Positions 18,001 through 19,050 of a stretch of DNA of 20,320 nucleotides are shown here, piece by piece. Each line of letters starts with the position of its first letter. Within the stretch, counting starts at the first letter, position 1. Position numbers and translations under genes: made by a program. The DNA is from a virus (Duplodnaviria; Heunggongvirae; Uroviricota; Caudoviricetes), in the IMG/VR virus record IMGVR_UViG_2565956608_000010, positions 1 to 20,320 of that record, one strand, 5' to 3'. The notes under the pieces were generated by a model. It ran no database searches. It saw only the letters and a program-made list of their open reading frames with translations, and was not told where the DNA came from.

Positions 18001-18159
18001 CCTGCAACTTGCCGTCAAAGGTGAATACTTCGCAGATAGTTTTCCCCAAATATGGGGAAAATCCCGAATGGCGCGGCTTACAGCAGGATAAAGGCTACAT
18101 GATTTGACAAATCCGCCAGAGCTATCGCATACTGACCGCACTACAACGTCAGCGGTCAA

Positions 18160-18188
18160 CCGCACCCGATAGCTTTGCGGCTTTTTTA
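18160..18188 (+). terminator. Rho-independent terminator-like hairpin in the DUF551-to-antirepressor intergenic region
   Basis: CCGCA (18160..18164) / TGCGG (18176..18180) stem followed by CTTTTTTAT; nested longer-range complementarity GCTATCG (18121..18127) / CGATAGC (18167..18173). Confidence 0.45.
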
Positions 18189-18335
18189 TGCCTGTTTACA
18201 GGTATCGCCATATCTATGGCGGGTCGAGAGAGCCTAATAGAACACCCTTTCGGGAAATAAGCTCCGCCGTCTGACGCGGTAGTTGAAGCCCGCCACCCCA
18301 CTAAGGTGGCAGTCAATACTAAAACGTCAGGAGTC

Positions 18336-18965
18336 ATGATTATGGCTATTCAACTCATCCCCGTATTCAACGGCACTATCGCCAACGAAACCACTCTTCT
18401 CGTTAATGCTCGCGATTTACATACTTTTCTTGGGGTAGGTAAACGCTTTGCATCGTGGATTACAGAACGCATTGCTGAATATGGTTTCGTTGAAAATCAG
18501 GACTATATTTTGGTTTCCCCAAATCGGGAAATCAAAGGTCGAGGAGGCGATCGCCGTAGCAAAGACTATCACCTCACCCTCGATACGGCCAAAGAAACTG
18601 CGATGGTCGAGCGCAACGAAAAAGGCCGCCAGATACGCCGATACTTCATCGAGTGCGAAAAGAAACTTCGCAGCATGCAACCAGCGCAGCAATTCACAGA
18701 CGAGGAAATCATCCTCCTCTGCTACATGCAGGTACAGATGGAGAATGCACAGGACATCTGCAAACGCCTGTACCCGATAATGAAGGAACTTAACTCATCA
18801 TACGCGAGTAAGCTGTATGACATTGCGTTTGAAACCTTCTATGCGGTGACGAAAAACAGAGATGTACTGCTCAGGGAGGCGACACGACTTGACCAGGCAA
18901 GCGCCGTTTTCGAACGGGCAAGACCAATGTTGAAAAGCCTTCGGGCGAGACAATTCGAATTTTAA
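18336..18965 (+). CDS. antirepressor, AntA/AntB-family N-terminal domain (about 209 aa)
   Basis: Segment LLVNARDLHTFLGVGKRFASWITERIAEYGFVENQDYI resembles the AntA domain; RBS AGGAG upstream of ATG 18336/18342; flanked by terminators on both sides. Confidence 0.6.
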   Translation: MIMAIQLIPVFNGTIANETTLLVNARDLHTFLGVGKRFASWITERIAEYGFVENQDYILVSPNREIKGRGGDRRSKDYHLTLDTAKETAMVERNEKGRQIRRYFIECEKKLRSMQPAQQFTDEEIILLCYMQVQMENAQDICKRLYPIMKELNSSYASKLYDIAFETFYAVTKNRDVLLREATRLDQASAVFERARPMLKSLRARQFEF

Positions 18966-18971
18966 TCATCA

Positions 18972-18995
18972 AAGGAGCTTCGGCTCCTTTTTTGT
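18972..18995 (+). terminator. Rho-independent terminator after the antirepressor gene
   Basis: AAGGAGC-TTCG-GCTCCTT (7-bp stem, UUCG loop) followed by TTTTG. Confidence 0.6.
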
Positions 18996-19050
18996 TGGAG
19001 AAAAATCAACCACTACTCGTTCCCTTGCGAGTAATTGCGGAGACTTTGCG

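Follow-up and report, generated by a model that had tools for sequence, protein, structure and literature searches.

The ant cassette at about 18100..18996 of a 20,320-nucleotide (nt) stretch of viral DNA (IMG/VR record IMGVR_UViG_2565956608_000010, positions 1 to 20,320; the whole stretch is called the window here) is, with a probability of roughly 0.8, an RNA-controlled antirepressor module of the kind found in the immI region of phages P1 and P7 and at the isrK locus of Gifsy-1. The window is an Escherichia coli lambdoid prophage. Antirepressors permit SOS-free prophage induction and cross-talk, and the silencing of antirepressors decides the timing of such induction. The parts of the cassette, their order, the fold of its structured RNA and the co-variation of the recognition loop of this RNA with both copies of its target are direct observations. 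Control seems to be exerted by two small RNAs (sRNAs) encoded in the leader of ant, rather than by a palindrome lying upstream. This kind of system is already known from P1/P7 c4, Gifsy-1 IsrK and P4 CI, and the cassette of the window is a new example of it. It consists of the following parts:

18104..18133, + strand: cassette promoter, with -35 TTGACA (18104-09), an 18-nt spacer and -10 CATACT (18128-33), 10/12 matches
18140..18188, + strand: leader RNA of about 49 nt, a1b1/IsrK-like, comprising b1, a1, antiterminator, terminator stem and U-run
18140-44, + strand: b1 ACUAC of the leader
18147-52, + strand: a1 CGUCAG of the leader
18152-55 and 18160-63, + strand: antiterminator GCGG:CCGC predicted by folding of the leader
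18160-64 and 18176-80, + strand: leader terminator stem CCGCA:UGCGG, with the U-run at 18182-87
18191-18202, + strand: small hairpin CCUGU-UU-ACAGG between the terminator and the C4-like RNA
18206-18221, + strand: small hairpin CGCCAUA-UC-UAUGGCG, overlapping the 5' arm of the closing stem of the C4-like RNA
18217..18301, + strand: C4-like antisense RNA of sRNA-Xcc1 type (near-threshold Rfam match, own model R2, covariation)
18217-24 and 18288-95, + strand: closing stem of the C4-like RNA
18230-33 and 18261-64, + strand: hairpin 1 of the C4-like RNA, with inner CCC/GGG at 18245-47 and 18252-54
18266-70 and 18276-80, + strand: hairpin 2 of the C4-like RNA
18271-76, + strand: recognition loop a' CUGACG in hairpin 2
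18279-86, + strand: b' GUAGUUGA of the C4-like RNA
18292..18310, + strand: hairpin GCCACC-CCACUAA-GGUGGC, overlapping the 3' arm of the closing stem
18313..18333, + strand: target region on ant mRNA, with b2 UCAAUAC (18313-19), a2 CGUCAG (18325-30) and the Shine-Dalgarno sequence GGAG (18330-33)
18342..18965, + strand: ant, AntA/P22_AR_C antirepressor gene (Pfam, PGAP) of 207 amino acids, with a second in-frame ATG at 18336
18971..18996, + strand: intrinsic terminator closing the cassette, AAAGGAGC-UUCG-GCUCCUUU followed by a U-run

The product of ant is, by its domain content, an AntA-family antirepressor, and the Pfam search confirms what a preliminary description of the window had proposed. 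Both AntA (PF08346; 95.1 bits, 3.8e-27, cut-off 27, residues 23-94) and P22_AR_C (PF10548; 37.8 bits, 2e-9, cut-off 22.4, residues 117-180) pass the gathering cut-off. PGAP gives the product the name 'phage antirepressor Ant' and starts it at the ATG equivalent to 18342. This ATG lies 8 nt past GGAG and is aligned with the start codon in phage PA28, and because of the Shine-Dalgarno spacing it is favoured over the one at 18336.

A sensitive DNA search with 17990..18340 returned Shiga toxin (Stx) phages of E. coli and Shigella, Aggregatibacter phage S1249 (80% identity) and Vibrio phage VHML (79% identity). The matching leader DNA lies directly upstream of an antirepressor gene, namely Ant in S1249, the Rha-like ORF48 in VHML and L0142 in 933W. 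The non-coding leader was better conserved than the adjacent proteins, and therefore an RNA was suspected. With gathering thresholds the Rfam scan of the window was empty. In E-value mode sRNA-Xcc1 (RF02221) was found on 18218..18302 with 49.6 bits (E 6.5e-8, model 1-87 of 87); homologues of this RNA in 933W, PA28, F451 (two copies) and S1249 score 64-74.5 bits and so exceed the family threshold. The C4 family (RF01695, clan CL00128) overlaps weakly, with 15.5 bits against a gathering score of 45 (E 3.6), and because of this score the RNA of the window is no sequence-level member of RF01695. All four helices of the sRNA-Xcc1 consensus fold are present. The family fold combines a closing stem with two hairpins, of which hairpin 1 has the invariant AAUAnAAnACC...GGGnAAUA and hairpin 2 is variable, and a tRNA-acceptor-like stem with an ACC-like tail is visible in the sequence of the C4-like RNA.

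A pattern scan of viral contigs gave 120 loci, among which a covariance model (R2) made from a seed annotated by hand finds 99 copies. It gives the RNA of the window 97.6 bits. An earlier model, R1, made from a MAFFT alignment and an RNAalifold consensus, was discarded since it captured only 6 base pairs. For 89 distinct sequences it was found that 95.4% of the cells are standard pairs, as compared to 69.3% after shuffling. In the same set 17 of the 20 pairs show compensatory changes on both sides, and sliding the 3' partner by 1-3 columns brings pairing down to 50% or less. By eye, analogues of the hairpin at 18292..18310 exist in PA28, 933W and others; this hairpin is possibly an alternative fold or a processing signal. 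The small hairpin at 18191-18202 is kept with a different sequence in S1249, 933W and VHML, again by eye.

The specificity of the C4-like RNA is visible in its loop. The loop CUGACG has its complement in the CGUCAG that adjoins the Shine-Dalgarno sequence of ant (18325-30), and again in the second CGUCAG, at 18147-52 in the leader. Likewise GUAGUUGA has a match on either side, ACUAC (18140-44) upstream and UCAAUAC (18313-19) downstream. In four further phages, the first to be aligned, the loop and its two flanking copies change in sequence yet stay complementary, namely in PA28 (CUUUGAAG/CUUCAAAG), 933W (CUUAUUUG/CAAAUAAG), S1249 (CUAGUC/GACUAG) and VHML (CUUGUUGA/UCAACAAG). A perfect complement of at least 6 nt lies within 100 nt downstream in 83% of the 89 members and within 140 nt upstream in 85%, as compared to 18% and 20%, respectively, in a mismatched-locus control in which the RNAs were paired with the flanks of different loci. 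When each distinct loop was represented once, which leaves 80, a complement of at least 7 nt was found downstream for 47/80 (control 4.5%, p 4e-42) and upstream for 60/80 (control 5.6%, p 9e-58). These numbers come from the covariance-model alignment; a first test of the longest complement was dropped, since it was confounded by conserved J-region/b complementarity and by a poor definition of the loop. In the family the target site is 26-36 nt past the RNA and 7-11 nt ahead of the start codon; 58 of 74 such sites adjoin a Shine-Dalgarno-like motif, and 62 of 66 repeat the upstream a1 string. The first downstream open reading frame (ORF) carries an antirepressor-type N-terminal domain in 64/78 (P22_AR_N 18, Bro-N 15, AntA 11, KilA-N 9, Rha 8, ORF6N 3). 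In the window the RNA gene lies on the same strand between the promoter and the antirepressor gene, and the same holds for these 64 of 78 relatives.

The sRNA-Xcc1 family was described in integron cassettes of Xanthomonas; the RNA of the window shares its consensus structure and aligns with it at full length. The family belongs to no clan and has been described from Xanthomonas and Xylella as a trans-acting, virulence-linked sRNA. Its homologues have been found both in integron cassettes and in tandem clusters. It could therefore be proposed that the structured RNA acts mainly in trans on host or unlinked targets and that its position before ant is incidental. This is improbable, though it fares slightly better than the other alternatives, because the loop co-varies with the adjacent ribosome-binding site (RBS) and with the upstream copy over 80 specificities, because the downstream genes are so largely of antirepressor type, and because P1 and Gifsy-1, in which a local target has been demonstrated, share the layout. 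Additional trans targets of the C4-like RNA are possible. On our data sRNA-Xcc1 groups by function with the C4 clan and regulates antirepressor genes locally.

Some phages carry two C4-like RNAs of differing specificity, placed in tandem or in successive ant modules; in F451 two to three ant genes or pseudogenes follow one another. For a Xylella island, five copies in tandem have been reported. The paired copies in two of the relatives are:

2306..2392 and 2540..2623 of S1249: paired C4-like RNAs
4299..4388 and 4839..4924 of F451: paired C4-like RNAs

In the viral contigs L038, L016, L111 and L103 the closing stem runs straight into a U-run, e.g. CCCGGCCUUUUUUG. From this sequence the C4-like RNA of these contigs would end at its own intrinsic terminator and not by processing.

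The borders of the cassette agree with an independent transcription unit. The promoter scan found 18104..18133 as the only sigma70-like site on the + strand within 17400-19400, and transcription would start at about 18140. An equivalent promoter, TTGACA-17/18-TAnnnT, stands at the same place before a1 in 44 relatives, and is likewise present in S1249 and 933W. The preliminary description had expected the promoter in 18190..18335; the scan is empty there, and the stretch is taken up by the conserved structured RNA. The hairpin terminator it had placed downstream of ant is real, with an 8-bp stem at 18971..18990, a 4-nt UUCG loop and a T-run. A terminator had also been proposed upstream, as an insulator. 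A weak hairpin is present there, with a 5-bp stem (CCGCA at 18160-64, UGCGG at 18176-80), an 11-nt loop and U6 (18182-87); it misses the terminator-scan criteria because its loop exceeds 8 nt. The insulating role does not stand. As the only promoter-like site lies upstream of this hairpin, the hairpin is inside the transcription unit of the cassette and is no insulator. It seems to be the end of a conserved leader RNA which carries decoy or target sites. Homology with other phages begins at about 18100-18104, at the -35, and stops at about 18993, after the terminator; in 933W and Sakai it begins at the promoter, and in the cassettes of the Stx phages it stops at about 18993. The borders of homology thus coincide with the -35 and the terminator, which upholds the idea that the cassette is autonomous, with a promoter and a terminator of its own. 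LexA control of ant, of the Gifsy/Fels type, was rejected because there is no LexA box near the promoter: no match to CTGT-N8-ACAG with at most 1 mismatch exists within 17648-18843, and the nearest ones are at 17632 and 18844, the latter inside ant.

An inverted repeat had been described in the leader as a possible operator. It is present, one nucleotide away from where it had been placed and with an N4 spacer:

18040..18061, no strand: perfect inverted repeat TTTTCCCCA-N4-TGGGGAAAA with 9-bp arms

A protein bound to this palindrome could control ant from a promoter in 18190..18335, with the two terminators as insulation. The palindrome is perfect; the window, PA28 and F451 all have it about 43 bp ahead of the -35, and about 71 phage records carry the palindrome segment at the same place. 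Such a scheme is nevertheless hardly probable. The sole promoter-like site lies upstream of the supposed upstream terminator, and a covarying RNA occupies 18217..18301. The cassettes of 933W, Sakai and POCJ13 start at about 18100 and have no palindrome, and the PA28 copy has one arm mismatch which is uncompensated. In F451 both arms are intact and the loop differs. The number of perfect inverted repeats of 9 bp or more in the whole window, 3 as compared to 1.0 +/- 1.2 in shuffles, is near chance, and no second copy of the palindrome was found in the window. A role as operator is therefore not supported. The other two perfect repeats are:

8982..9005: perfect inverted repeat of at least 9 bp between cII/cro and cI, in the operator region
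13466..13493: perfect inverted repeat of at least 9 bp after the Nmad5 gene

An imperfect inverted repeat inside ant (18509..18536, TTTGGTTTCCC-N6-GGGAAATCAAA) resembles the palindrome, and both contain TTTCCCCAAAT...GGGAAA. The likeness may be a coincidence or a trace of common origin.

The leader RNA would be the second of the two sRNAs on which the RNA-controlled module depends. It was observed that a1, a conserved CGG, a hairpin and then at least 5 T follow each other in 70/76 relatives. When the leader was masked and folded with RNAfold, all 57 of 57 distinct leaders formed a hairpin ending at most 3 nt from the U-run. A crude search for stems beside the U-run, which the masked folding superseded, could not distinguish real leaders from shuffles. 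The stems vary (CCGCA/UGCGG, UCAC/GUGA, CCAAC/GUUGG, UAUCGCA/UGCGAUA and others), and the average hairpin is weak, at -5.4 kcal/mol. Across subfamilies with differing stems two motifs are kept and are nearly invariant (18153..18168 in the window): CGG right after a1, in 50/57 leaders, and the terminator-loop motif ACCCG(A/U)(C/U)AG. Pairing of the post-a1 CGG with the CCG of the loop could be a general antiterminator.

Folding predictions suggest how the leader could work. For the leader of the window, taken from about 18140, GCGG(18152-55):CCGC(18160-63) is predicted with a probability of 0.96 and the terminator stem with 0.02. If b1/a1 and CGG are masked, as if paired with the C4-like RNA, the predicted probability of the terminator is 0.99. 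For the leaders of 44 relatives the mean predicted terminator probability is 0.31 unmasked and 0.89 masked. The predicted duplex of leader and C4-like RNA has 15 bp (GUAGU:ACUAC, CUGACG:CGUCAG, GCCG:CGGU) and -23.1 kcal/mol, with a z score of -5.2, and 0/500 shuffles reach this value.

The module could be working in the following way. In the lysogen the cassette promoter would make the leader, and read-through would add the C4-like RNA. Its loop CUGACG together with b' would pair with a2 and b2 at the Shine-Dalgarno sequence of ant, and translation of Ant would be blocked. The leader holds the same targets in a more contiguous form, which could give it two non-exclusive roles. As an attenuator, it would be bound by the C4-like RNA while nascent; this would remove GCGG from the 5' arm of the terminator and lead to termination, a negative feedback like that of P4 CI and seqA. 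As a decoy, the terminated, free leader would titrate the C4-like RNA and turn on translation of Ant, as IsrK does in Gifsy-1. On induction, N-antiterminated transcription from PL, co-directional with the cassette, would pass both terminators and yield more ant mRNA. The prophage had been credited with lambda immunity; its resident repressor is CI-like, with HTH_3 and Peptidase_S24 domains, and because of the S24 peptidase domain Ant would be dispensable for SOS induction. Ant may serve SOS-independent induction or cross-talk. Cross-talk with other prophages is possible, and its specificity would then be at least partly RNA-coded.

It is very improbable that the leader is just a weak constitutive terminator with a 5' untranslated region and that Ant is made simply by N-antiterminated read-through from PL, with no RNA switch: the cassette is co-oriented with the PL operon containing the N gene, its leader terminator hairpins are weak and the RBS pairing in the window is short, but the cassette, always with its own promoter, also stands where read-through from PL is absent (at the right end of 933W by attR, in VHML and in S1249), its cross-genus sequence conservation exceeds that of the downstream proteins, and a plain untranslated region leaves the covariation and the duplicated co-varying targets unexplained.

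Several points weigh against an RNA-controlled module in the form given here. The sRNA-Xcc1 score of the window RNA is 3.4 bits below the gathering threshold of 53, and the models for c4-a1b1 (RF03163) and isrK (RF01394) give no match in 17950..18450 at E up to 10. The a'/a2 pairing in the window is only 6 nt long, and RNAduplex against the RBS region of the window does no better than shuffles (z -0.95). Because the pairing in the window itself is short and not significant, the case for translational repression rests on the family-wide co-variation. The predicted attenuator needs a start no earlier than about 18138; folding from 18134 predicts a constitutive terminator. Only in the CCGC-stem subfamily can the antiterminator pairing be seen clearly. 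The attenuator and decoy roles would act oppositely on Ant. Finally, the start site, the RNA ends and any processing at the locus are predictions from the sequence.

The module was compared with systems that have been studied in other phages. The c4 RNA of P1 is processed from the primary transcript by RNase P. The GenBank annotation of P1 lists the promoters P2c4/P1c4, a1, b1, the c4 RNA, a2 and b2 at the icd RBS, icd and ant1/2, and Rfam assigns C4 and c4-a1b1 in P1. P1 immI and the cassette of the window share a promoter, a1/b1, a hairpin with a U-run, a structured RNA, downstream targets at an RBS and an antirepressor. Recognition is bipartite (a'/b') in both, with the specificity in short variable sequences, and both have the motif GCGGnCAACCGCA...UGCGGnUUUUU. 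P1 has GCGGACAACCGCAGAUUUCCGAUAUUGCGGUAUUUUU after b1, clearly homologous to GCGGUCAACCGCACCCGAUAGCUUUGCGGCUUUUUU of the window, and carries a homologue, GCGGACAACCGCA...UUGCGGUAUUUUU, of the leader of the window. There are also differences. The RNA of the window belongs to the sRNA-Xcc1 family, and R2 misses the c4 RNA of P1 at an E of 1e-3 or better. P1 has icd between the RNA and ant; in the window there is no icd ORF between them, so that its RNA would target the ant RBS directly. The window has no C1-type operator, and it is an integrated lambdoid prophage with the cassette by xis/int. The antirepressor domains are AntA/P22_AR_C in the window, as compared to the Ant1/2 proteins of P1.

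Gifsy-1 has the same layout and has been studied by experiment. In Gifsy-1, Rfam finds isrK (79 bits) with an overlapping c4-a1b1 match (48 bits); a C4 RNA (69 bits) lies 25 nt further downstream, and the antirepressor-like anrP follows. The 'orf45'/STnc1160 element of the isrK locus, at 34131..34329 on the - strand, is the Rfam C4 match with 69 bits. Because of these C4 and c4-a1b1 matches the isrK locus looks like a c4/a1b1 system. PMC4825925 only hinted at a c4-type reading, via resemblance to P4 seqA/CI/seqC. In that work the short IsrK ends at a Rho-independent terminator (Hershko-Shalev et al. 2016, PMC4825925), and part of the transcripts pass this terminator and give a translationally inactive isrK-orf45-anrP mRNA (PMC4825925). 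Short IsrK supplied in trans raised anrP translation 139-fold, and the stationary-phase induction of Gifsy-1 requires the isrK promoter (PMC4825925). Gifsy-1 and the window are alike in being lambdoid prophages in which a leader, a terminator hairpin, a C4-type RNA and an antirepressor-like gene follow each other and the leader copies the RBS sequences. The window has a promoter, a1/b1, a hairpin and U6, from which a short c4-a1b1/IsrK-like leader RNA with termination and partial read-through is predicted. They differ in the RNAs, which are isrK/c4-a1b1 and C4 in Gifsy-1, whereas the window has a leader that matches no Rfam model and an sRNA-Xcc1-type RNA. The middle element of Gifsy-1 has been read as a translated 45-codon ORF coupled to anrP, and the window has no comparable ORF with a Shine-Dalgarno sequence. 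The Gifsy-1 locus adjoins Q, and that of the window adjoins xis/int.

P4 immunity has a processed leader RNA (CI) complementary to copies upstream and downstream of its own gene (seqA/seqB/seqC). Pairing of CI leads to premature termination of transcription (summarised in PMC4825925), which would match the predicted attenuator role of a1b1 in the window. P4 controls replication genes and no antirepressor; the likeness is one of layout, and termination control in the window is a folding prediction. In P22 immI a P22_AR_C-type antirepressor is silenced in the lysogen, partly by an antisense RNA (sar) at the ant RBS. The sar RNA comes from the opposite strand across this RBS, whereas the regulator of the window is on the same strand and upstream, and Mnt/Arc genes do not flank the cassette of the window. 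Two elements of phage Phi24B were set apart. The 20-nt '24B_1' RNA differs by its description, with its locus at lom-vb_24B_43 and its proposed target d_ant downstream of R; the Phi24B ant (Fogg et al.), a gene of the PR' region that precedes qut and whose C-terminus is P22-Ant-like, is not this cassette.

Relatives of the cassette exist in the Stx phages 933W, VT2-Sakai (Sp5), PA28 and F451. A megablast search found the promoter-plus-leader part (18104..18194) in 377 of 5,426 complete E. coli genomes, and the whole leader with an sRNA-Xcc1-type RNA in 47 of them, about 8 times fewer. Most of the promoter-plus-leader matches are 90-95% identical, and among the matches listed only the first 91 nt are covered. 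This suggests a modular exchange of the 'specificity' part, RNA and target, behind a constant leader. No annotated feature lies under the 12 matches listed. In the literature search no paper was found that links sRNA-Xcc1 to antirepressor control; the nearest is a note on an APSE phage in which sRNA-Xcc1 precedes an ORF6N protein. In a 2025 review on phage sRNAs, c4 and IsrK appear as separate entries, and no element of this kind is mentioned for Stx phages.

The proposed P1/Gifsy-1 type of RNA switch would link this cassette and its relatives in Stx phages to the experimentally studied IsrK of Gifsy-1, and the family-wide analysis joins three separately curated Rfam families (sRNA-Xcc1, C4/c4-a1b1 and isrK) in one functional design. 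The loop and target 'barcodes' comprise at least 80 specificities. A tentative extension, which we regard as doubtful at present, is that lambdoid and Stx prophages carry a second, RNA-coded layer of immunity, made of a decoy or attenuator leader sRNA, a c4-like RNA and an antirepressor, in which hypervariable barcodes decide which co-resident or superinfecting phages silence or unleash the antirepressors of each other. If this is true, the resident Ant would be derepressed by an incoming phage whose leader RNA matches, and SOS-independent induction would follow, including that of 933W and Sakai Sp5. In that case sRNA-Xcc1, at present taken for a trans-acting virulence sRNA, would be an antirepressor controller of the C4 clan.

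The sequence to the left of the palindrome was also examined. It contains the following remnant:

17993..18032, + strand: 5' remnant of an ASCH-domain gene, VANLQLAVKGEYF..., its first 40 nt joined to unrelated sequence

The remnant was recognised from the translated intact gene of F451 and a three-way alignment, and several phage matches span only 17990-18032. The fusion marks a mosaic joint immediately to the left of the palindrome. That the palindrome itself lies in a coding remnant was rejected, as neither of the short ORFs spanning it matches Pfam at E up to 10. With these ORFs tblastn found only the same intergenic segment in related phages.

The stretch 17900..19100 is 100% identical to prophages of strains AVS0578 and M15, and the integration site of the AVS0578 prophage adjoins torS. 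On the + strand the genes are arranged as CI-like repressor, ParA-like ORF, N, recombination genes, Ead/Ea22-like, DUF551, ant, xis and int, and the cI/cro region is 99.5% identical to its counterparts in HK97, mEp234 and HK106. The neighbouring genes are:

11643..12026, same strand as ant: N gene, in the PL operon
Between N and the Ead/Ea22-like gene, + strand: P22-like recombination genes (Rad52-like, SSB, Abc2)
16845..17513, + strand: Ead/Ea22-like gene, on the upstream side of the ant cassette
17515..18000, + strand: DUF551 gene, on the upstream side of the ant cassette
19051..19269, + strand: xis (Exc 3.9e-41), on the downstream side of ant
19247..20320, + strand: int, on the downstream side of ant

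The early-left region also has a gene for a protein with the nucleotide modification associated domain 5 (Nmad5; 12738..13421, + strand, 1.5e-68) and the superinfection-exclusion gene SieB (12048..12587, - strand). Directly 3' of cI, in the position that rexAB takes in lambda, lies an ORF for a ParA/AAA_31-type ATPase of 364 amino acids (10045..11139, + strand), which could be an exclusion or defence gene.

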